DNA from: a virus
Taxonomy: Duplodnaviria; Heunggongvirae; Uroviricota; Caudoviricetes
Length of the DNA: 44,935 nucleotides
Virus record (IMG/VR): IMGVR_UViG_643348551_000004
Strand: one strand, 5' to 3'
This document shows positions 1,983 through 18,137 of the stretch, one piece after another. The notes under the pieces are model-generated. The model did not search any database. It worked only from the letters and a program-made list of their open reading frames with translations, and was not told where the DNA came from. The stretch's first letter is position 1. Every line of letters begins with the position of its first letter. A program made the translations under genes and the position numbers.

Positions 1983-2274
1983 CTGATGATTTTGCTTTTC
2001 ATGTTCATCGCTCCTTAAAGATGCCGTTTAACATGCCGATCGCCAGGCTTAAATGAGTCGGTGTGAATCCCTCAGCGTTACCGTTTCGCGGTGCTTCTTC
2101 AGTACGCTACGGCAAATGTTATTGATGCTCCTGTCTGGTGACAGCCATCGGGCTTGTATTATGTATAAGTTCTGATAAAAGCCTCCGATATATTAAATTT
2201 AAATAACGAAATTCATCTTCTTGATAAGTTGTGATAGCATCATTAAAAGTTTCAGTTCGTTGAGCAGGGATTAC

Positions 2275-2853
2275 ATGGTAAATCAGCAACAGCAACAGAT
2301 TAACGAAAATCTAAAAATTGAGGCAATCCGTTGGTATCAGAAGCTGCAGGAGATTACTTATCTTGAAGCAGGACAACACATGCGGGCTTTAAATCAGCTC
2401 ATGTGGCAAATCCCTAGTTTCGTAATTGCTGTCAATGGTGGGTTGTGGTATGCAACAACACTGGCAAATGAAAGTTCCCTATGGATTATCTTTGCAGTGT
2501 TAGCATTGTTTGATTTCACAACAATGATTACACTTTATCGCTTAAGGTCTTTAATTGGTTCGAAAATAGCACTACAAAAAAACATTGAAGATCCTTCAAA
2601 AAACTATATTTTAAATGAAATTACTAGAGACGCTGGATTTAAATTGCCCTCTAGCTATGATAATAAGGAAACTGGTTACATAGTAGTGTCGTGCTGGGCA
2701 GTAATGCTTATTGTTTGCTTCTTTGTTAATATTGCTGGAGTATATCATCCAAACTTGTTTTCAAAAGACATTTCACATAATACATACAAAGCAACAATTA
2801 AAAATATTGAGTCAGGATTATTTATCGAAGCAAAATCAGGATTATCAAAGTGA
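2275..2853 (+). CDS. Predicted 3-TM membrane protein with an N-terminal poly-Q, unknown function (192 aa from MVNQQQQQ)
   Basis: ATG at 2275 follows AGGGA. Hydrophobic spans are IPSFVIAVNGGLWYATTLA, LWIIFAVLALFDFTTMITLY and YIVVSCWAVMLIVCFFVNIAGVY. The region is AT-rich and on the strand opposite its neighbours. Confidence 0.7.
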   Translation: MVNQQQQQINENLKIEAIRWYQKLQEITYLEAGQHMRALNQLMWQIPSFVIAVNGGLWYATTLANESSLWIIFAVLALFDFTTMITLYRLRSLIGSKIALQKNIEDPSKNYILNEITRDAGFKLPSSYDNKETGYIVVSCWAVMLIVCFFVNIAGVYHPNLFSKDISHNTYKATIKNIESGLFIEAKSGLSK

Positions 2854-3452
2854 CTTCGTGGAAGTTTTATGACAATAATGCTGATCGCTTATTTGCCGAT
2901 TATATATCACTTGATTTTTACTCTATCTTTCAGGATGTTGAAGAGTTTATTTTACAATCTAAGGGTGTCTCTTTGGATGTCGGTTCAGGTTCCGGCCGTG
3001 ATGCTGCTGCGTTAGATGAATTAGGTTATAAAGTAATAGCTGTTGAACCAAGTGAAAAGATGCGAAATTTGGCATCTTCATATTATAAATCTAACCATAT
3101 TATATGGTTAGATGATTCATTGCCTTTTCTTCATAGTGTTAAAGCAATGAATCTAAAGTTCGACCTTATTTTAGTCAGTGCTGTATGGATGCATCTTTCA
3201 AAAAAAGAGCAAAAAATCTCACTAGAGACGCTAACTGATCTTTTAACATTGAATGGGAGAATGATAATTACATTGCGCTTAGGACCTCCCGAACCAGATA
3301 GAAACATTAACGTTGTTAATACTGAGGAACTTCTTGAGTTAGCGTCTCAGTTAGGTCTGAAAACATTGCGAGTTACGTCAATAAATAAAGATAGTTTTCA
3401 ACGTAACCAGATAACTTGGCAGAAAGTTGTATTATCAAAAAATAATGAGTAA
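2850..3452 (+). CDS. Class I SAM-dependent methyltransferase (200 aa, small-molecule/TehB-like size)
   Basis: Motif I is LDVGSGSGRDAAAL, an acidic post-I is AVEPS, and LILVSAVWMHL follows. The GTG start overlaps the upstream stop (GTGA), which suggests translational coupling. Confidence 0.8.
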   Translation: MTSWKFYDNNADRLFADYISLDFYSIFQDVEEFILQSKGVSLDVGSGSGRDAAALDELGYKVIAVEPSEKMRNLASSYYKSNHIIWLDDSLPFLHSVKAMNLKFDLILVSAVWMHLSKKEQKISLETLTDLLTLNGRMIITLRLGPPEPDRNINVVNTEELLELASQLGLKTLRVTSINKDSFQRNQITWQKVVLSKNNE

Positions 3453-3463
3453 ATAACTTAGTA

Positions 3464-4708
3464 TTATTCGCACAGACCGTAGCGTGAAGAGCAAACCTCT
3501 ATATCGAGACTTGCTTTTACAAGATCGTAGACCTTGCCACCGCGCCCTGTTTTTGCCCACTCTACGACTTCATAAACACCCGGAGAATTAAGATCTCCAC
3601 GAGGACCATAAAATCCTGACCAGTCGATGTGTTGCACATCAGGTTTTAGCCCAAAAAGTTGAATATTTCGACCAAGTGGCAGATTGAACTGTTTCATCCA
3701 GCGTTGGCTTATCTCTCCTACGCTCATCCAGTGTACCCATCTACTAGCAAGGCGTACCTTCAACTCCCATTGTTTGTGCTTTTTGATGTGCTCTGGCCAG
3801 CGCGCAGCCGTCTCTGCAATTTCCTCTTTGTTGCATAGCACGCAATTCATGCAGCCAACACGAGACGCACCTTGCATATAAAGTGGATTTGGCTTAATTC
3901 CGAAATATTTGTGAACTGCGAATACGTCCTCAGCCGTCCATTTGTGGAGCGGCAGGAAGTTGTAGAGAAAATCGGCGTCGCGCATATCGCGGGAAAACCT
4001 CTCATATCCAGCGCGCTTAGAGGACTCATCCGCGCGAACACCAGACCATTGTACGATAACATCGCCAGCATCAAGGAGCGGCTTTATGGCTGCGTCGAAA
4101 GCTATCTGAATTTTCAGTTCGTCTGTACAGAATCGGTCGCGCAGCATAGGGAACTTGCCATGCAGAAGGGAGCAATCCAAAAAGCTATTACCGGATGGGT
4201 GCATAACGGAAAGCGCAGCATCAAGAGCAGTTTCGAACTCAATTCCCCAGCGTTCTGCTGTGCGCTTCCAGGCTTGCCCGAATTTGGTGTCAGAACGTGC
4301 GAGGGAAGGCATGACTATGCCACGGTATGCTCCCATGCGGATCATCTGTCGTTTAGACCAGTTTTTTTGCAGATAAATTCGTCGTTTGGCAAAATCTTCT
4401 TCAGTGTAAATCCGCTTCACAACCTGCACAGGGCTACAACCGATCTGCTCATGAATGCTCCTGGCGAATTCGACAGTTAGATTATGCTCATTATCCGTGT
4501 CTGCCATAACAGCATGTACCTGTTTGCCGAATAATGTGTGCGCCACTGCGAGTGTGGCAGTGCTGTCTTTTCCTGCTGAATAATTCACGATTATCTTATG
4601 ATCATTAGGGATGCGAAATTCATTTATATATCTGTTGTAGGACTCTTCTATTTCGCGAATTTTCTTGCTGATGTCTGTTGGGACAATAATTATTGCTGCC
4701 TCGTTCAT
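3464..4708 (-). CDS. PP-loop ATP-pyrophosphatase / PAPS-reductase-family protein (414 aa)
   Basis: The PP-loop is NYSAGKDSTATL. Cys clusters are GCMNCVLC and the C-terminal VCSSRYGLCE. The SD is GGGAGGCGG, and the start overlaps the upstream orf60a-like stop (ATGA). Confidence 0.8.
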   Translation of the reverse strand: MNEAAIIIVPTDISKKIREIEESYNRYINEFRIPNDHKIIVNYSAGKDSTATLAVAHTLFGKQVHAVMADTDNEHNLTVEFARSIHEQIGCSPVQVVKRIYTEEDFAKRRIYLQKNWSKRQMIRMGAYRGIVMPSLARSDTKFGQAWKRTAERWGIEFETALDAALSVMHPSGNSFLDCSLLHGKFPMLRDRFCTDELKIQIAFDAAIKPLLDAGDVIVQWSGVRADESSKRAGYERFSRDMRDADFLYNFLPLHKWTAEDVFAVHKYFGIKPNPLYMQGASRVGCMNCVLCNKEEIAETAARWPEHIKKHKQWELKVRLASRWVHWMSVGEISQRWMKQFNLPLGRNIQLFGLKPDVQHIDWSGFYGPRGDLNSPGVYEVVEWAKTGRGGKVYDLVKASLDIEVCSSRYGLCE

Positions 4709-6699: not shown

Positions 6700-7110
6700 T
6701 TAGCGATTCAGGCCGTTACCGCGTCCGTCGAGAAAAACTTCCACGAGCAAATCACGGGTATAAGTGCGCTCGATGCCGCGATGCAGATAAAGCCGTCCGC
6801 GTAAATTAGCTGATGCAGTCCAGGTACCATCTTTGTGTTTGACCAGCATTCCTGGCATGACCGCACCGCGATTAACGGTCTGCGTTCCGTAATGTTGATG
6901 AACCATAAAAACTCCTGCCCGTAAGCTGGGCTGCTGAACATATAGAGACTTCTGCGCGTATTCAGGCGGTGGATGGCCGCCGGTTGTCATAACTAAGCCG
7001 CCTCGTTGAAGCGACTGAGGTATAAAGTGTTGTGTTGATTTCAGCTGGTCACACCGACGTTCACGCGTCCGCTTCACCCCTCGCACTCCCCGGAGCCTGC
7101 TGAAATTCAA
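6700..7110 (-). CDS. First ORF of the pL operon, unknown function; start ambiguous (TTG 7110, GTG 7077, ATG 6990, ATG 6906)
   Basis: This is the only sizeable ORF between pL and gam. The best SD (CAGGAG, 5 nt) precedes ATG 6906 and gives 68 aa. GTG 7077 (GGAG, 8 nt) would add an Arg-rich N-terminus, KRTRERR. Confidence 0.5.
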
Positions 7111-7183
7111 GCTGCGGATCTAAGCGGTCATCGCAACGGTGAATCAGGTGATTGCCGTATCGTTGTGTTGTTGCGACATGGGG

Positions 7184-7212
7184 ATAATAGCTATTGCTAT
7201 TGATGATATCAA
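7184..7212 (-). promoter_or_regulatory. pL-like early-left promoter
   Basis: The minus strand reads TTGATA (7212-7207), a 17-nt spacer, then TATTAT (7189-7184). An operator motif lies in the spacer. It points towards gam/bet/exo. Confidence 0.7.
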
Positions 7213-7262
7213 TACTTATTGCTATTGCTAGATGTGTTTTGATATTAAATGTTTGATAGCAA
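7186..7262. promoter_or_regulatory. OL operator cluster
   Basis: TTGCTATTG occurs at 7194-7202 and 7219-7227, with an inverted variant TGATAGCAA at 7254-7262. Palindromes are AATAGCTATT (7186-7195) and TATTGATGATATCAATA (7198-7214). The same 8-9-mer recurs at OR. Confidence 0.6.
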
Positions 7263-7350
7263 AAAGAATTAATTTTGTGACTTGCATCGCATAGCGATAA
7301 CTGAAGCGAGGTCGTGGTGGTTTTTTGAACGGTGTGTGATGAGGGGAGGG

Positions 7351-7381
7351 CAAAAGAAAACCCGGCACGGTGGCCGGGTTT
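7351..7381 (-). terminator. Intrinsic terminator ending the repressor operon (t_imm analogue)
   Basis: The minus strand reads AAACCCGGC-CACCGT-GCCGGGTTTTCTTTT. A 6-bp GC stem (7361-7366 pairs with 7373-7378) is followed by a U-tract. It lies 75 nt after the 147-aa ORF stop. Confidence 0.8.
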
Positions 7382-7455
7382 AGATGATTGGTTAAGAGCG
7401 AGGGTAATGGGGAATGAAAAATCGCTTTACCTAATGCAAGGGTGCGAGCATTTTC

Positions 7456-7899
7456 TTAAGCACTAAAGAAAAAGTACATTGATAGCTTATAAAGTCCTGT
7501 TCCTGCAGCGATGATTGCTGGAACACCAAGCAATACCGCAAGCTTTGCGTCTGAAATCTTTCTATCGACAGCATCACTTGATGGCTTGTTTGTTAAGGAT
7601 TCTTTTATAGAGTCCAGACGTGCAAGAATAGTTATCATATTTTTGTCGATAGCTTTAACGTCTGTTTTAAGTTCATCAACGTCTCGTTTGATATGAGCAA
7701 CATCGGACTCCAGTTTTGCAACTTTTTCAGGCATGTTATCACTCCCAGACCCACTGCTACCACTTGATTGTAGCATGTCCCATCTTTTTCCAGATATACC
7801 TGCTAGCTGGGAAGACGCACTGGAGTGCAAACAAAATGATTCTGCCGCCTTTGCAATTTTATCATTTAGGTTTGGAGCTTCGTAATAATCGTGTTTCAT
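7456..7899 (-). CDS. Unknown 147-aa protein: Ser/Gly linker, heptad coiled-coil, C-terminal membrane anchor
   Basis: Clean ORF. Elements are SSGSSGSGSD, EKVAKLESDVAHIKRDVDELKTDVKAIDKNMITILARLDSIKESL and LAVLLGVPAIIAAGTGLYKLSMYFFF. It is reminiscent of XhlA-type tail-anchored proteins. Confidence 0.7.
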   Translation of the reverse strand: MKHDYYEAPNLNDKIAKAAESFCLHSSASSQLAGISGKRWDMLQSSGSSGSGSDNMPEKVAKLESDVAHIKRDVDELKTDVKAIDKNMITILARLDSIKESLTNKPSSDAVDRKISDAKLAVLLGVPAIIAAGTGLYKLSMYFFFSA

Positions 7900-7911
7900 A
7901 ATTAATTACGA

Positions 7912-8175
7912 TTAGTTTGTTTTAGCTTTGTCATGCTGGTCGCGAATGAAGTCAGCCAATTTAAGCATCAATTCTTCGGGCATTCTAATGGTTGCAATGT
8001 TGTACTTTATGTTCTCAACATCGTCACTTTCATCAACAGGCCATTCAGTTACATTATGAAAAAAAGAAATTGAACCTAGGCGCTGAGAGCCGTCACCAAA
8101 CGAAGAGTAGCCAAACGCGTCGGCGTATGCATCGACACAGTTATTTGATTTTTTAACAAGTGTTTTATTACTCAT
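7912..8175 (-). CDS. Unknown acidic 87-aa protein
   Basis: ORF with AAGG, 6 nt, then ATG. It ends 12 nt before the 147-aa ORF. The C-terminal ATIRMPEELMLKLADFIRD resembles a strand-helix (RHH-like) element. Confidence 0.65.
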   Translation of the reverse strand: MSNKTLVKKSNNCVDAYADAFGYSSFGDGSQRLGSISFFHNVTEWPVDESDDVENIKYNIATIRMPEELMLKLADFIRDQHDKAKTN

Positions 8176-8257
8176 TTTTTGCCTTTCCCGTAATGTTATT
8201 TTTTATAAGGTATTTTCTTCAGCGTATTACCCAAAAGCCTCATCAACACGCGGCTGA

Positions 8258-8950
8258 TTATCCGTGTTTTCTGTACGTCTGCGGCATGCTCCCAATAACC
8301 TTACCGAATATGAATACCCGGTTCATCTCGTCTTTCTCGATCGGGTCCCACGGTGAGTAGCTCTTGTTATCAGAGATAACCAGTAGCTTATCCTTCATCA
8401 TTTGCAGGCGCTTTACATGGGCGGTGTCGTCATACAGAAACGCATAGATACCATCACCGTCGAAAGATTTAACCGTGATATCAACGAACAGCAGATCACC
8501 TGGTTCGATCGTTCCTGACATGCTGTCACCACGCACGTTAATGATGCGGATATTTTCCGCCTTCCTGCCATCGAACATGTGACGAGCATCGTCAAACGAG
8601 TATTCAACCGAGCGTAGAACTTCTACAAACTCACGGTTGATTACACCCGGCCCGGCACTGACTTCTATATCAAGAACGTCAATTTTGAAGTATTTGGAAT
8701 GGCTGACAGCAGGCTTCCCTGATTGTTGACCGTCATTTCTCATCGGGCCTATGCCTGATGAGAGCCATTCTGTTCGAACACCCAATGCATTAGCTATTTC
8801 AACAATTTTTGTTGAGCCGCGCGCGTTGCCGCTTGTCAGTCTCCAGATTGTGGGTTGAGCTACGCCAGACGCCTTTGCAAGAGCGCCTTGAGACATTCCA
8901 GATTGTTCCATCGCTAGGTTTAAGCGATCAGCAAGAGTTTCTTTTTTCAT
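8258..8950 (-). CDS. cI: CI-type prophage repressor (XRE HTH + S24 LexA-like peptidase), 230 aa from MKKETL
   Basis: The HTH is MSQGALAKASGVAQPTIWRL. The likely Ala-Gly cleavage site is EVSAGPG. The Ser nucleophile is in VRGDSMSGTIEPGD and the Lys in HVKRL. No SD precedes ATG 8950, so the start looks leaderless. Confidence 0.9.
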   Translation of the reverse strand: MKKETLADRLNLAMEQSGMSQGALAKASGVAQPTIWRLTSGNARGSTKIVEIANALGVRTEWLSSGIGPMRNDGQQSGKPAVSHSKYFKIDVLDIEVSAGPGVINREFVEVLRSVEYSFDDARHMFDGRKAENIRIINVRGDSMSGTIEPGDLLFVDITVKSFDGDGIYAFLYDDTAHVKRLQMMKDKLLVISDNKSYSPWDPIEKDEMNRVFIFGKVIGSMPQTYRKHG

Positions 8951-8987: not shown

Positions 8988-8994
8988 ACACGTT

Positions 8995-9051
8995 TTGCTA
9001 TTGCTTGGATTAATACGCATTGCTATTATTCATTCATTGCAATACCAATAG
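8995..9051. promoter_or_regulatory. OR operator cluster
   Basis: TTGCTATTG is at 8995-9003 and TTGCTATTA at 9020-9028, overlapping the PR -10. The palindrome ATTGCAAT is at 9036-9043 and an inverted CAATAG at 9046-9051. Confidence 0.55.
9001..9029 (+). promoter_or_regulatory. PR-like early-right promoter
   Basis: TTGCTT (9001-9006), 17 nt, then TATTAT (9024-9029). It lies about 30 nt upstream of the cro ATG. Confidence 0.65.
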
Positions 9052-9060
9052 GAATTGATA

Positions 9061-9288
9061 ATGACAAATCAAACCATTCAACTCGCAATCAGTATTACAG
9101 GTAGTCAAAAACGACTGGCAGATCTATGCGGTGTAGCCCAACCCACAGTTTGGCGTTGGCTACACGGTGGCGGAATTGATGCCCGCTATGTAATGAAAAT
9201 TGTCTCAGCCACTGGTGGAAAGATTAAACCAGCAGATATTCGTCCCGACCTCGCACCATTGTTTAACGCGAGTAATTCTGCCGCCTAA
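9061..9288 (+). CDS. Cro-like HTH regulator, YdaS family (75 aa from MTNQ)
   Basis: AGGA, 7 nt, then ATG 9061. GSQKRLADLCGVAQPTVWRWL...IVSATGGKIKPADIRPDL resembles Rac YdaS-type Cro proteins. Confidence 0.8.
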   Translation: MTNQTIQLAISITGSQKRLADLCGVAQPTVWRWLHGGGIDARYVMKIVSATGGKIKPADIRPDLAPLFNASNSAA

Positions 9289-9312
9289 ACTGCGGCGTTA
9301 ACTGATAAGGCA

Positions 9313-9858
9313 ATGACTATGCAACCACTTACATACCAACAGACTAGCGGATTTAGCCCGACTGCGGTGATAAATCGTTCTCAAACAAAACAGGCGCCAG
9401 GCCACGAAAAAATCCGTGATGCCGTTCGCGCCTGGTCGGCTGCAGATAATCAGGATGTTGTTGCCGCACTCATTGTGAATGAGTATCGGGAGCAGGGCGG
9501 CGGCACCATCGATTTCCCTGATGATGTCAGCCGTGCACGCCAGAAGCTGTTCCGCTTCCTCGATAACAAATTCGATTCTGAAAAATACCGAAATAACGTG
9601 CGTGAACTGACCCCGGCAATTCTGGCGGTACTACCGCTGGAATATCGCGGCCACCTGGTTGAGCAGGATAGCTTCATGGCTCGGCTGGCTGAAATGGAAA
9701 AGGAACTCAGTGAGGCAAAACAGGCTGTCATTCTCAACGCACCACGCCACCAGAAACTGAAGGAAATTAGTGAAGGTATTGTGTCGATGTTTCGTGTGGA
9801 CCCAGATCTGGCTGGTCCATTGATGGCGATGGTTACTACCATGCTGGGGGCGATATGA
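9313..9858 (+). CDS. YdaT-like protein (CII-position regulator), 181 aa
   Basis: It sits immediately after cro and before O. My recollection is of YdaT-family proteins paired with YdaS-type Cro in Rac-like prophages. Confidence 0.5.
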   Translation: MTMQPLTYQQTSGFSPTAVINRSQTKQAPGHEKIRDAVRAWSAADNQDVVAALIVNEYREQGGGTIDFPDDVSRARQKLFRFLDNKFDSEKYRNNVRELTPAILAVLPLEYRGHLVEQDSFMARLAEMEKELSEAKQAVILNAPRHQKLKEISEGIVSMFRVDPDLAGPLMAMVTTMLGAI

Positions 9859-11871: not shown

Positions 11872-11938
11872 TGAAACAGGTGAGTTGATTTCAAACTGTA
11901 GTACAATTCTCTCCAGTTTGAACAGGAAAGAATATGCT

Positions 11939-12271
11939 ATGAACCCTTATATTTATCTTGGTGGTGCAATACTTGCAGAGGTCATTGGTACAACCTTAAT
12001 GAAGTTTTCAGAAGGTTTTACACGGTTATGGCCATCTGTTGGTACAATTATCTGTTATTGTGCATCATTCTGGTTATTAGCTCAGACGCTGGCTTATATT
12101 CCTACAGGGATTGCTTATGCTATCTGGTCAGGAGTCGGTATTGTCCTGATTAGCTTACTGTCATGGGGATTTTTCGGCCAACGGCTGGACCTGCCAGCCA
12201 TTATAGGCATGATGTTGATTTGTGCCGGTGTGTTGGTTATTAATTTATTGTCACGAAGCACACCACATTAA
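11939..12271 (+). CDS. emrE: EmrE small multidrug resistance (SMR) efflux protein, 110 aa
   Basis: MNPYIYLGGAILAEVIGTTLMKFSEGFTRLWPSVGTIICYCASFWLLAQTLAYIPTGIAYAIWSG... equals K-12 EmrE. Confidence 0.95.
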   Translation: MNPYIYLGGAILAEVIGTTLMKFSEGFTRLWPSVGTIICYCASFWLLAQTLAYIPTGIAYAIWSGVGIVLISLLSWGFFGQRLDLPAIIGMMLICAGVLVINLLSRSTPH

Positions 12272-12527: not shown

Positions 12528-14054
12528 ATGAAAAAAGCCATAGCATATATGCGATTTTCATCACCAGGTCAGATGTCTGGCGACTCATTAAACCGACAGA
12601 GAAGACTTATTGCTGAATGGTTAAAGGTAAATAGTGATTATTATCTTGATACCATAACATATGAAGATTTAGGATTAAGTGCATTCAAAGGAAAGCATGC
12701 ACAATCAGGAGCTTTTTCGGAATTTTTAGATGCTATAGAGCATGGTTATATATTGCCAGGAACTACATTGTTAGTTGAAAGTCTGGACAGACTTTCAAGA
12801 GAAAAAGTCGGTGAAGCGATTGAGCGTCTGAAATTGATTTTGAATCACGGTATTGATGTTATAACTCTTTGCGATAATACAGTCTATAATATTGACTCTT
12901 TGAATGATCCATATTCATTAATAAAAGCCATACTTATAGCACAAAGGGCAAATGAAGAAAGCGAGATAAAGTCAAGTCGGGTTAAATTATCATGGAAGAA
13001 AAAACGGCAGGATGCACTGGAGTCAGGCACGATTATGACGGCGTCTTGTCCGAGATGGCTCTCCTTAGATGACAAAAGAACGGCTTTTGTTCCAGACCCC
13101 GACAGGGTGAAAACTATTGAGCTAATTTTTAAACTCAGGATGGAAAGGCGCTCATTGAATGCAATAGCCAAGTATTTAAATGATCATGCTGTAAAGAATT
13201 TCTCAGGAAAAGAAAGTGCATGGGGACCTTCTGTAATTGAAAAATTATTAGCGAATAAAGCTCTGATAGGTATATGCGTACCTTCATATCGTGCAAGAGG
13301 TAAAGGAATAAGTGAAATCGCTGGCTATTATCCCAGAGTCATATCAGATGATTTGTTTTACGCTGTGCAGGAAATTCGGTTGGCACCTTTTGGTATTAGC
13401 AATAGTAGCAAAAACCCTATGTTGATAAATCTACTTCGAACAGTTATGAAGTGCGAGGCTTGTGGTAATACCATGATTGTTCATGCGGTATCTGGAAGTT
13501 TGCATGGCTATTATGTTTGTCCGATGAGAAGACTGCATCGATGTGACAGGCCATCAATAAAGAGAGATTTGGTTGATTATAATATCATTAATGAGTTGCT
13601 TTTTAATTGTAGTAAAATCCAACCAGTTGAAAACAAGAAAGATGCTAATGAAACTTTAGAGTTGAAAATTATTGAGCTCCAGATGAAAATTAATAATTTA
13701 ATTGCTGCATTATCTGTTGCGCCTGAAGTTACCGCTATAGCAGAAAAAATCAGAGTATTAGATAAGGAATTACGAAGGGCTTCTGTATCATTAAAAACTT
13801 TGAAGAGTAAAGCGGTGAGCTCACTTGGTGATTTTCATGCTATTGACTTAACCAGTAAAAATGGGCGAGAGCTATGTCGTACACTTGCCTATAAAACATT
13901 CGAAAAAATCATAATCAATACAGATAATAAAACCTGTGATATCTATTTTATGAATGGCATTGTTTTTAAACACTATCCTTTAATGAAAACAATATCCGCC
14001 CAGCAGGCGATAAGTACTCTCAAATATATGGTTGATGGTGAGGTTTATTTTTGA
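12528..14054 (+). CDS. ybcK: Large serine recombinase (resolvase domain + recombinase domain + zinc ribbon + coiled-coil), 508 aa
   Basis: The N-terminal AIAYMRFSSPGQ is the catalytic Ser motif. The Zn ribbon is CEACGNTM...YYVCPMRRLHRC. It matches K-12 DLP12 YbcK in size and position. The gene is very AT-rich. Confidence 0.88.
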   Translation: MKKAIAYMRFSSPGQMSGDSLNRQRRLIAEWLKVNSDYYLDTITYEDLGLSAFKGKHAQSGAFSEFLDAIEHGYILPGTTLLVESLDRLSREKVGEAIERLKLILNHGIDVITLCDNTVYNIDSLNDPYSLIKAILIAQRANEESEIKSSRVKLSWKKKRQDALESGTIMTASCPRWLSLDDKRTAFVPDPDRVKTIELIFKLRMERRSLNAIAKYLNDHAVKNFSGKESAWGPSVIEKLLANKALIGICVPSYRARGKGISEIAGYYPRVISDDLFYAVQEIRLAPFGISNSSKNPMLINLLRTVMKCEACGNTMIVHAVSGSLHGYYVCPMRRLHRCDRPSIKRDLVDYNIINELLFNCSKIQPVENKKDANETLELKIIELQMKINNLIAALSVAPEVTAIAEKIRVLDKELRRASVSLKTLKSKAVSSLGDFHAIDLTSKNGRELCRTLAYKTFEKIIINTDNKTCDIYFMNGIVFKHYPLMKTISAQQAISTLKYMVDGEVYF

Positions 14055-17039: not shown

Positions 17040-18137
17040 TTAGAACTGGTAAACCAGACCTACAGCAACGATGTCATCAGTGCTTACACCGAGTGCTTTA
17101 GTGAAGTCATTTTTGTCAAGCAGGTTGATTTTGTAATCAACGAAAGTAGACATATTTTTGTTGAAGTAATAGGTTGCACCTACATCAACATATTTGACTA
17201 AGTCCTGATCGCCCCATACTCCAAGATCTTTACCTTTAGATTGCAGGTAAGCAACGGACGGACGCAGACCGAAATCGAACTGATATTGTGCAACAGCTTC
17301 GAAGTTTTGGGCTTTATTAGCAACGAAGTGATCAGCAAATACAGTCATATTCTGGGTTTCAGAATAGGTAGTGGCCAGGTAAATGTTGTTAGCGTCATAT
17401 TTCAGACCTGCGGCCCAAACTTCTGCATTTTTACCGGAAGCAAATACTTCAGGAAGAACTTTCCCTGCATTAACTTGAGTGTCGGTACGATCAGATTTCG
17501 CATAAGTTGCACCGATACCGAATCCTTCGTATTCATAGGTAGCAGAGAAACCGAAGCCATCACCGTTACCTTCAGTGTAGTTATCGAAATCGCTACGATC
17601 GTTTTTGCCTTGGTACTGAGCAGCAAAGTTCAGACCATCAACCAGACCAAAGAAGTCGTTGTTACGATAGGTTGCAACACCAGTGGTGCGACCAGTCATG
17701 AACACATCTGTTTGGGTCCAGGTATCGCCACCGAATTCTGGCAGAACGTCAGTCCACGCACCGATGTCGTATGCTACACCGTAGTTACGGCCGTAATCGA
17801 TTGAGCCGTAGTCACCGAATTTCAGGCCTGCAAATGCAAGACGGGTTTTGTCTTTGGAGGAACCTTGAGATTCAGCGCGGTTGCCTTTGAATTCATATTC
17901 CCACTGACCGAAACCAGTCAGTTGATCGTTGATTTGGGTTTCACCTTTGAAGCCAAGACGGGCATAAGTAGTATCACCATCATCTGCATCATTAGAGGAG
18001 AAGTAGTGCTTGGCATTAACTTTCCCGTACAGATCCAGCTTGTTACTGTCTTTATTATAAATTTCAGCTGCCTGAGCAGACATCGCCATCAGTACTGATG
18101 CAGCTACAGCAGAAATTGCCACTGTTAATTTTTTCAT
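17040..18137 (-). CDS. nmpC: NmpC/Lc-type OmpC-family general porin, intact, 365 aa
   Basis: The signal peptide is [40 protein letters not shown]...VGLVYQF shows the classic porin N-terminus and C-terminal Phe. Confidence 0.95.

Follow-up and report, generated by a model that had tools for sequence, protein, structure and literature searches.

What does a temperate phage carry between its repressor gene and the terminator of its immunity region, at the position that rexAB occupies in phage lambda? The DNA in which this question arose, here called the window, is the whole 44,935-nucleotide (nt) stretch of IMG/VR record IMGVR_UViG_643348551_000004 (Caudoviricetes), and the subject of this work is a pair of small genes that it carries downstream of a cI-type repressor: gene 1, encoding 87 amino acids (aa), and gene 2, encoding 147 aa. 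An earlier note, made from the letters of the window alone, had taken the two for acquired cargo in the rexAB slot and had proposed that they act together to exclude other phages or abort their infections. Our analysis identifies the segment 7382-8257, which holds both genes, as a horizontally mobile two-gene cargo module in the immunity region of an E. coli prophage, and we regard the pair as a credible candidate, sharply bounded, for an exclusion or abortive system of prophages that has yet to be described. Loci compared with the window are designated by L numbers.

Position of the pair in the immunity region

The elements of the immunity region, from the right operator leftward, are as follows.

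8994-9055: OR, an operator-motif cluster between cI and a cro-like gene (9055-9288)
8258-8950, minus strand: cI-type prophage repressor, 230 aa, ATG start, with HTH_3 and Peptidase_S24 domains
8176-8257, minus strand: 82-nt spacer from the cI stop to gene 1, holding the gene-1 ribosome-binding site
7912-8175, minus strand: gene 1, 87 aa, an acidic soluble protein, phrog_4231
7456-7899, minus strand: gene 2, 147 aa, a predicted tail-anchored coiled-coil membrane protein, phrog_3556
7382-8257, minus strand: variable cargo segment, 876 bp, with the cI stop codon and the terminator stem as its exact limits
7348-7381, minus strand: intrinsic terminator (hairpin and T-tract), the equivalent of t_imm
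7184-7231, minus strand: OL/pL, an operator-motif cluster and a promoter-like site

The repressor matches Pfam HTH_3 (HTH, helix-turn-helix) and Peptidase_S24 at E 1.3e-18 and phrog_4 (transcriptional repressor) at E 5e-69. Its open reading frame (ORF) reaches 8986 if a TTG-extended start is used, it is annotated as WP_001295669.1 in L001, and it is the upstream gene of a presumed PRM/PRE transcript. Matches to the operator motif ATAGCAATAGCWAT number 21 in the window compared with 6.3 expected, a count reached by none of 100 shuffles, and they cluster at 7187-7231 (OL) and 8994-9055 (OR). With operator clusters on both sides, the repressor, the pair and the terminator therefore constitute a unit within OL-OR. 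The pL-like promoter (7212-7184) reads TTGATA-17-TATTAT and agrees with the consensus at 10 of 12 positions, while the terminator stem (7381-7358) consists of nine pairs, six of them G-C, followed by TCTTTTG, with an RNA fold z-score of -3.25. The earlier note had located both ORFs, the repressor, the gaps of 82 and 12 nt, the hairpin and OL/pL correctly, and it was also right in placing the pair within the immunity region at the position of lambda rexAB.

Gene 1 is preceded by the ribosome-binding site GGGAAAGG, 7 nt 5' of its ATG, and is separated from gene 2 by a gap of 12 nt. A consensus scan of the spacer (8176-8257) found no sigma-70 promoter and no minus-strand terminator; the sole terminator-like site, at 8248-8267, is on the plus strand. 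The pair thus follows cI with no minus-strand terminator in between and ends at the shared terminator, and most likely the lysogen transcribes it at the end of the repressor message.

An exchangeable cargo slot downstream of the repressor

The G+C content is 0.38-0.40 over 7450-8200, compared with 0.51-0.54 in the exo/bet/gam and O/P flanks. The ends of the cargo are sharp: homology breakpoints relative to the E. coli prophages L014, L015, L016 and L017 fall at 7380/7381 and 8258, with homology to L014 and L016 stopping at window position 7380/7381. The terminator is part of the conserved backbone and not of the cargo; prophages in which the slot is empty or holds other genes have it too.

What lies in the slot varies under identical repressors. 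Repressor WP_000858975.1 is followed by an empty slot of 119 nt in L016 (O104:H4 2011C-3493), by the window's pair in L017 (O26 RM10386), by a 79%-identical allele of the pair in L066, and by a gene for a 126-aa hypothetical protein (WP_001226567.1, unmatched) in L067 (1991-2371). Repressor WP_001295669.1 is followed by the window's pair in L001 and by genes for a HipA-like kinase and a DUF3037 protein in L014 (805-2378), and closely related repressor alleles precede a gene for a 533-aa SIR2 protein in L015 (786-2387) or an acetyltransferase-like/ASCH pair in L064 (1103-2519) and L068. The slot in related prophages is thus either empty or occupied by other cargo, and three of the cargo types match candidate families in PADLOC: the HipA-like kinase with DUF3037 matches PDC-M66A/B, the SIR2 protein matches PDC-S25 as well as the ThsA-type SIR2, and the acetyltransferase with ASCH matches PDC-M11A/B. 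The cI-to-terminator slot is an exchangeable cargo site that repeatedly carries genes flagged by others as defence candidates, and the suggestion that the pair was acquired is borne out by its low G+C, its exact boundaries (7382-8257) and the changing slot contents. The module shows the presence/absence polymorphism among collinear prophages and the deviant composition of a moron; as to a promoter and terminator of its own, a consensus scan, which is a weak test, found no promoter in 7382-8257, and the terminator is conserved flank.

A second slot in P22-like prophages and the distribution of the pair

Among 50,697 cultured-phage records, gene 1 was detected only in the P22-like Salmonella phage UPF_BP1, in which the pair lies directly 3' of mnt, between mnt and the ejection-protein gene 16. 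P22-like prophages of Serratia and Leclercia share this arrangement, as do several IMG/VR contigs and four E. coli genomes; it holds for the homologues L002, L003/4, L008, L032-37, L048 and L049, but the window copy lies elsewhere. In these P22-like copies the mnt stop codon falls inside gene 1, with an overlap of 4-23 nt. The corresponding interval in P22 itself is filled by orf59a and sieA, and sieA is found in only 22 of 66 P22-like phages (PMC10883804). Further homologues follow an XRE-HTH repressor in Arsenophonus (L018) and a different S24 repressor in L053, and others lie in tail-region accessory islands beside KilA-N/Ant-type antirepressor genes; the tail-region copy of Raoultella has no flanking plus-strand promoter or terminator detectable by consensus scan, a weak test. 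Wherever it is found, the pair is tied to prophage immunity genes, and we infer its expression in the lysogen from this association.

The pair is strongly linked to prophages and conserved across genera. A scan of genome contigs added only one locus, in Arsenophonus. The pair is present in 204 of 5426 complete E. coli genomes (about 3.8%), always on the chromosome and always annotated as hypothetical; 150 of these copies are at least 99% identical, including those of O26:H11 11368 and of O103 strains (RM8385), about 50 are the 79% allele, and four are the P22-like copy. Strain JNE151685 agrees with the window at 100% identity over 7300-8300 and over cI. In two P22-like prophages a third small gene follows the pair, encoding a 101-aa protein with a signal peptide in Serratia (L003, 6957-7262) and a 33-aa hydrophobic peptide in Leclercia (L008, 6704-6805); these may be further morons or additional components.

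The proteins encoded by the pair

Gene 1 encodes a protein of pI 4.96 that has no hydrophobic segment and belongs to phrog_4231 (unknown function; E 7e-54). Its family is tiny, comprising 10 clusters at 90% identity; a remote-homology profile search of 1.84e9 representative proteins returned only eight close clusters, whose representatives at 50% identity are all 89-99 aa long. Residues Y23, G27, F38, F39, W45, A61, E67, L73, A74, I77 and Q80 are invariant, within a conserved core that reads D-x-F-G-Y-S-S-F-G ... S-I-S-F-F-K-x-V-x-x-W ... A-T-I-R-M-P-E-x-L-x-L-x-L-A-x-F-I-x-x-Q-H. The C-terminus of the protein had been thought to resemble a ribbon-helix-helix strand-helix. This did not hold: the AlphaFold2 model (predicted local distance difference test score, pLDDT, 78) contains a four-stranded sheet (strands 6-8, 20-26, 33-46 and 54-66) and a single C-terminal helix (67-86), and there is no Pfam match at E<=1. 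NCBIfam and PADLOC searches with gene 1, and an hmmsearch comparison of its profile with the PDB, also gave no match.

Gene 2 belongs to phrog_3556 (unknown function; E 1.5e-58), and its product can be divided into the following parts.

7828-7899, minus strand: residues 1-24, N-terminal motif (K/S)x(D/N)YYExPxLxEKLxxAA, with a predicted helix at 11-24
7735-7827, minus strand: residues 25-55, Ser/Gly/Gln-rich linker, disordered (pLDDT <50 for 23-50)
7732-7734, minus strand: in-frame ATG (Met56) at the junction of linker and coiled coil, with GGGAG 7 nt upstream
7591-7731, minus strand: residues 57-103, coiled coil of 6.5 clean heptads, a=V/M/L and d=L/I
7489-7548, minus strand: residues 118-137, C-terminal transmembrane (TM) helix AKLAVLLGVPAIIAAGTGLY, with an invariant Pro and small-xxx-small residues

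This is the build that the earlier note had read from the translation, with an N-terminal segment, a Ser/Gly linker, a heptad coiled coil and a tail anchor in that order. The model of the gene 2 protein (pLDDT 63) contains only helices, at 11-24, 56-103 and 108-146, with disorder at 25-55. The hydrophobic peak is a single segment at residues 118-136 (Kyte-Doolittle maximum 1.80); it is preceded by a conserved KKPSxDAVDKKISDAK (residues 105-119) and followed by a tail of about 10 residues (138-147). K105, P106, I115, A118 and L124 are invariant, and P127, G133, T134 and K138 are invariant or nearly so. Because the 117-residue N-terminal part is hydrophilic and carries no signal peptide, the predicted topology is N-in and tail-anchored. 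The ratio of nonsynonymous to synonymous substitutions (dN/dS) is 0.05-0.16 for gene 1, and for gene 2 it is 0.12 in the C-terminal two thirds and 0.16-0.59 in residues 1-55. Both genes are, judging from these substitution patterns, real and under purifying selection, and not chance ORFs.

Gene 2 has no Shine-Dalgarno (SD) sequence, and its start lies 12 nt 3' of the gene-1 stop, with the gap in relatives ranging from -53 to +12 nt. The missing SD and short gap make translational coupling likely, and probably also a complex of the two products. Met56 is a possible internal start that would yield a short form of 92 aa. All 14 divergent loci compared have a start codon exactly here (13 ATG, one GTG) behind Gly codons that resemble an SD, the SD:anti-SD energy is -6.8 kcal/mol or stronger in 12 of the 14, and gene callers often annotate only a short form of 90-93 aa.

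Neither protein has a significant match in Pfam, NCBIfam, PADLOC, the PDB or BFVD. The 147-aa protein gave only coiled-coil noise against Pfam, NCBIfam and PADLOC, and its coiled coil alone only generic coiled-coil matches in Pfam and the PDB. In PADLOC-DB v2.0.0, which includes BstA and the PD- and PDC- sets, it reached no better than E>=0.004 and <=13.5 bits, and the 87-aa protein matched nothing. The pair, with the accessions WP_000066829.1 and WP_012565042.1, is not among the entries of the DefensePredictor supplements, and full-text searches for the accessions, the locus tag and the PHROG identifiers returned nothing, although prior characterisation is not fully excluded by such searches. 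Tail-needle coiled coils of P22-like phages (gp26-type "DNA stabilization protein"; 5bu8, 5bu5 and 4lin; E 0.008-0.4) were among the top matches listed for the coiled coil in a PDB profile search, most likely through trimeric coiled-coil bias, and were rejected on this ground; they deserve mention only because it is sieA that the pair replaces in P22-like phages. The likeness to XhlA and holin-like proteins seen by the earlier note stands for the architecture and fails for family membership. The window protein scores 12.1 bits and its relatives <=19 bits against the XhlA family, compared with a Pfam gathering cut-off of 34.7; even at E<=0.1 only three of 14 members match, and generic coiled-coil families score equally well or better. 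One gene-2 homologue is named "Hemolysin XhlA" in UniRef.

Pairing and modular exchange

Gene 1 is followed by a gene of the motif-linker-start-coiled coil-TM type at 38 of 39 IMG/VR loci and at the single locus from genomes; the exception is L051, in which the downstream gene was not detected. The membrane module behind gene 1 is not constant. At least five types were distinguished, belonging to different PHROGs of unknown function.

Type A membrane module: the window
Type B membrane module: UPF_BP1 and L053
Type C membrane module: Leclercia and L052
Type D membrane module: Serratia, Arsenophonus and L057
Type E membrane module: Raoultella

Type D modules have a periplasmic tail of 28-35 residues, whereas in types A, B and E no more than about 11 residues follow the TM helix. 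The N-terminal motif is retained in most of the divergent partner genes, and because it accompanies gene 1 regardless of the type of membrane module behind it, we propose it as the docking site of the gene 1 product.

Exchange has occurred in the other direction as well. The type A module gave 320 profile matches, every named one of them from Enterobacterales, and it is also found behind other N-terminal peptides and at least four unrelated upstream proteins, among which are the following.

Beta-rich class of 140-153 aa: Klebsiella, Serratia fonticola, Pantoea and L072
CxxC protein of 119 aa: L069
Protein of 93 aa: Rahnella

These loci lie directly 3' of S24 or HTH repressors, or in tail-region islands, and comparison of the 87-aa profile with the alternative upstream partners by hhalign found no homology. 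The exchange point of the modules is the Gly/Ser linker. One E. coli protein of 134 aa (P0070) is a natural deletion fusion that joins gene-1 residues 1-57 to a type B coiled-coil/TM module; it apparently arose by way of the DVENIK sequence common to both genes, and is probably an inactivated copy.

Taken together, these observations invite a wider reading, which we offer as a doubtful one, in which the pair is a representative of an unrecognised modular family of Enterobacterales prophage membrane systems with swappable TM modules, a docking peptide, an exchangeable partner and a short isoform. Such a family may comprise at least five interchangeable TM types and at least four unrelated soluble partners, of which the 87-aa family would be one, and the untethered short isoform could tune or trigger the system. 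P22 SieB/Esc and the holin/antiholin pairs provide analogies for a short isoform of this kind.

Proposed function and alternative explanations

We consider it probable that the two genes specify a lysogen-expressed, membrane-associated accessory pair, and we lean, with appreciably less assurance, toward the view that this pair acts against other phages by some means. That it does so through an abortive membrane-effector mechanism specifically is a tentative proposal, to which we give somewhat less than an even chance. Under this proposal, the gene 1 product would bind the short N-terminal YYExPxL/helix motif of the gene 2 product, which would be anchored in the inner membrane by its C-terminal helix with the coiled coil and N-terminus in the cytoplasm. 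As long as the gene 1 product is bound, the coiled-coil/TM module would be kept inactive, in the manner of an antitoxin with its toxin or a sensor with its effector. An infecting phage would remove or alter the gene 1 product, either because this labile partner is lost or because a phage component binds, and the freed tail-anchored module would then oligomerise through its coiled coil and perturb the inner membrane, so that the infection is aborted. The start at the junction may additionally provide an untethered short form. An antitoxin/toxin-like or sensor/effector reading fits best because of the pairing of the genes, the co-variation of peptide and partner, the swappable module, the placement beside lysogeny genes and the nature of the slot-mates.

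Several points weigh against an abortive or exclusion function. Neither protein matches a defence or toxin-antitoxin (TA) family in Pfam, PADLOC or NCBIfam. A single-TM anchor with a short periplasmic tail could form a pore, but it would suit passive anchoring or a block to injection just as well. Residence in a cargo hotspot says little about function, since morons unrelated to defence are carried in such slots too. The cargo lacks a consensus promoter in the scan described above, so that expression in the lysogen would rest on read-through from cI or mnt. Finally, synonymous recodings of the Gly-rich linker yield an equally good SD match in most loci, a non-significant outcome (combined p 0.03, from lineages that are not independent), and since recoded linkers do about as well, selection for an internal ribosome-binding site is not demonstrated.

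The alternative that survives best, and that we nevertheless judge unlikely, is superinfection exclusion at DNA entry in the manner of SieA or HK97 gp15, in which the tail-anchored protein would obstruct a channel or partner that incoming phages need for translocating their DNA, with the gene 1 product as an assembly or specificity cofactor and with survival of the infected cells. Some homologues are accessory genes within tail-gene regions, where the HK97 gp15 moron sits similarly, and the long periplasmic tail of the type D modules would suit such a role. In P22-like prophages the pair replaces orf59a/sieA beside the ejection-protein gene 16, and SieA, itself located in the inner membrane, keeps DNA from being transported across it (PMC10883804). 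However, the pair has no similarity to SieA, which is polytopic, whereas the gene 2 product has one TM segment, followed in types A, B and E by about 11 residues at most. A soluble partner and the free swapping of membrane modules under a constant gene 1 would also be unexpected if the protein had to recognise a phage conduit, and the reverse swapping, of different upstream genes before a constant membrane module, would be likewise.

Less likely again is a TA-like addiction or stress module that stabilises the prophage or helps the host and has no role against phages. The order and coupling of the genes, in which the small acidic product is encoded first and the downstream gene overlaps, is that of type II TA operons, and the strong linkage of the pair to prophages would suit such a module; on the other side, TA-family homology is absent and the slots otherwise hold defence-candidate cargo or sieA. 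This explanation also overlaps the abortive one, as many prophage TA modules are abortive-infection systems.

We regard as improbable a regulator of lysogeny or induction, in which the gene 1 product would bind nucleic acid or protein, be sequestered at the membrane by the gene 2 product, and modulate repressor or antirepressor circuits. The pair does adjoin immunity genes (cI, mnt, the XRE-HTH repressor and Ant/KilA-N antirepressors), but the fold matches are not significant, the pair is associated with three unrelated repressor types, and it is dispensable for immunity, since the same repressor alleles function with an empty slot or unrelated cargo. Least likely by far is an XhlA-type accessory lysis protein and partner serving the prophage's own lysis, which the coiled coil with C-terminal TM helix, the weak matches to PF10779 and PHROG "hemolysin" families and the single UniRef name would favour, and which sub-threshold scores, matches in only a few members at relaxed E values, and a place on the repressor strand and transcript in the immunity region rather than with the late lysis genes (ORFs at about 18.9-19.9 kb, so assigned by position) speak against.

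If the pair does exclude phages by the proposed abortive mechanism or otherwise, it would be a new means of defence or exclusion, not homologous to any system in the catalogues, and of unusually simple build, with a soluble partner tethered by a peptide to a tail-anchored coiled-coil protein. The repressor-downstream slots of lambdoid (immC) and P22-like (immI) phages would then constitute one exchangeable cargo pool worth mining, and, since reference strains of enterohaemorrhagic E. coli carry the pair, phage typing, superinfection by Shiga toxin phages and phage therapy could be affected. The modular family, if real, would bring to abortive infection or exclusion a sensor/effector logic of a new, plug-and-play kind, and would single out the immC and immI regions as defence hotspots of lambdoid and P22-like phages. 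Natural near-isogenic comparisons are available, in that one repressor allele occurs with an empty slot, with the pair or with other cargo, and related alleles occur with the SIR2, kinase and ASCH cargo. The main interest of the locus lies in the modular tethered architecture and in the link between the immC and immI cargo slots.

Other features of the window

Near the integrase gene (1-1164), positions 2221-3452 (plus strand) encode a 210-aa ORF without a Pfam match and a 200-aa S-adenosylmethionine-dependent methyltransferase, and positions 3464-4708 (minus strand) encode a 414-aa PAPS-reductase-domain protein; 2221-4708 looks like another accessory block at the int end. In the early left region, no gene for an N-like antiterminator was found between pL and the kil-like gene (6906-7184). 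No Pfam family matches the ORF that shares the stop at 6700, and the placement of kil follows its homology to the gene annotated in L001. A Klebsiella relative (L063) has an N_peptide gene at the corresponding place, and early-left antitermination may work differently in the window prophage. To the right of OR, 9055-9858 encodes a YdaS-type HTH protein at the cro position and a YdaT-domain protein at the cII position, a placement seen in many E. coli lambdoid prophages; the Pfam names denote toxins, while the positions here are regulatory. Cargo resembling that of DLP12 comprises an SMR/EmrE-type efflux gene (11885-12271), a 508-aa large serine recombinase (ybcK-like; 12528-14054) and, on the opposite strand, a 365-aa general porin (NmpC-like; 17040-18137). 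The sole Rfam match at the gathering threshold in the window is IS009 (RF02111; 44015-44213, plus strand, 226.7 bits), near the end of the tail-fibre region.

Comparison with known systems

A comparison of the pair with lambda RexAB shows an equivalence of position and differences between the proteins. RexAB is an abortive-infection system that excludes specific phages (T4 rII) by depolarising the membrane. Both are encoded on the cI strand inside OL-OR, in the interval from cI to the immunity terminator, and both are two-gene units in which the first product is soluble and the second belongs to the membrane, with expression of the pair in the lysogen presumed. The pair shows no sequence similarity to RexA or RexB (blastp E>=3.4), it matches no Pfam or PADLOC family, those of RexA and RexB among them, and its first product has 87 aa compared with 279 aa for RexA. 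RexB is a four-helix membrane protein, polytopic and channel-like, whereas the gene 2 product would be a single-pass, tail-anchored coiled coil with a tethering peptide and linker.

XhlA (PF10779) and the PHROG "hemolysin" families 1193 and 937 share with gene 2 the plan of a small phage protein in which a coiled coil on the N-terminal side precedes a C-terminal TM helix, and they give weak profile hits. XhlA genes belong to lysis cassettes, whereas gene 2 lies in the immunity region and its product has an extra N-terminal motif and linker. Type II TA operons are like the pair in having a small acidic upstream gene, an abutting or overlapping downstream gene and coupling between the two, and the combination of variable, cognate-specific parts (gene 1 and the N-terminal motif) with a conserved downstream module is also TA-like. 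Unlike them, the pair has no TA-family homology in Pfam or NCBIfam, and its putative toxin would be a tail-anchored membrane protein with its own tethered docking peptide.

The resemblance to P22 SieA is again one of position, in that homologues of the pair fill the mnt-to-gene 16 interval in P22-like prophages that lack sieA, and of type, both involving a prophage-encoded inner-membrane protein, which for the pair is predicted from topology and presumed lysogen expression. SieA acts alone and is polytopic (PMC10883804), whereas the pair consists of two coupled genes, one for a soluble product and one for a product with a single TM segment; sieA also has its own promoter, whereas gene 1 overlaps the mnt stop codon. 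Against P22 SieA, blastp gave a best E of 0.14 (29 columns) for the 87-aa protein and 1.5 for the 147-aa protein, orf59a gave nothing either, and the SieA motif FxRYPxEAxxFNK (PMC10883804) is absent from both proteins.

Prophage-encoded pairs of a cytoplasmic and a membrane protein are also known from mycobacteriophages. Butters gp30 and gp31 interact functionally and exclude heterotypic phages (PMC7542560), and Sbash gp30/31 and the CarolAnn system are reported to be prophage two-gene defences of this kind (PMC6426596, PMC6426606). These differ from the present pair in their unrelated hosts and proteins, so that homology is not to be expected, and in a membrane partner with several predicted TM segments compared with a single tail anchor. 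Given positional equivalence without homology or family matches, we treat the pair as working like these systems rather than as a member of any of them, and the mechanism proposed here would correspond in function to the action attributed to RexAB and to the two-gene systems of mycobacteriophages.

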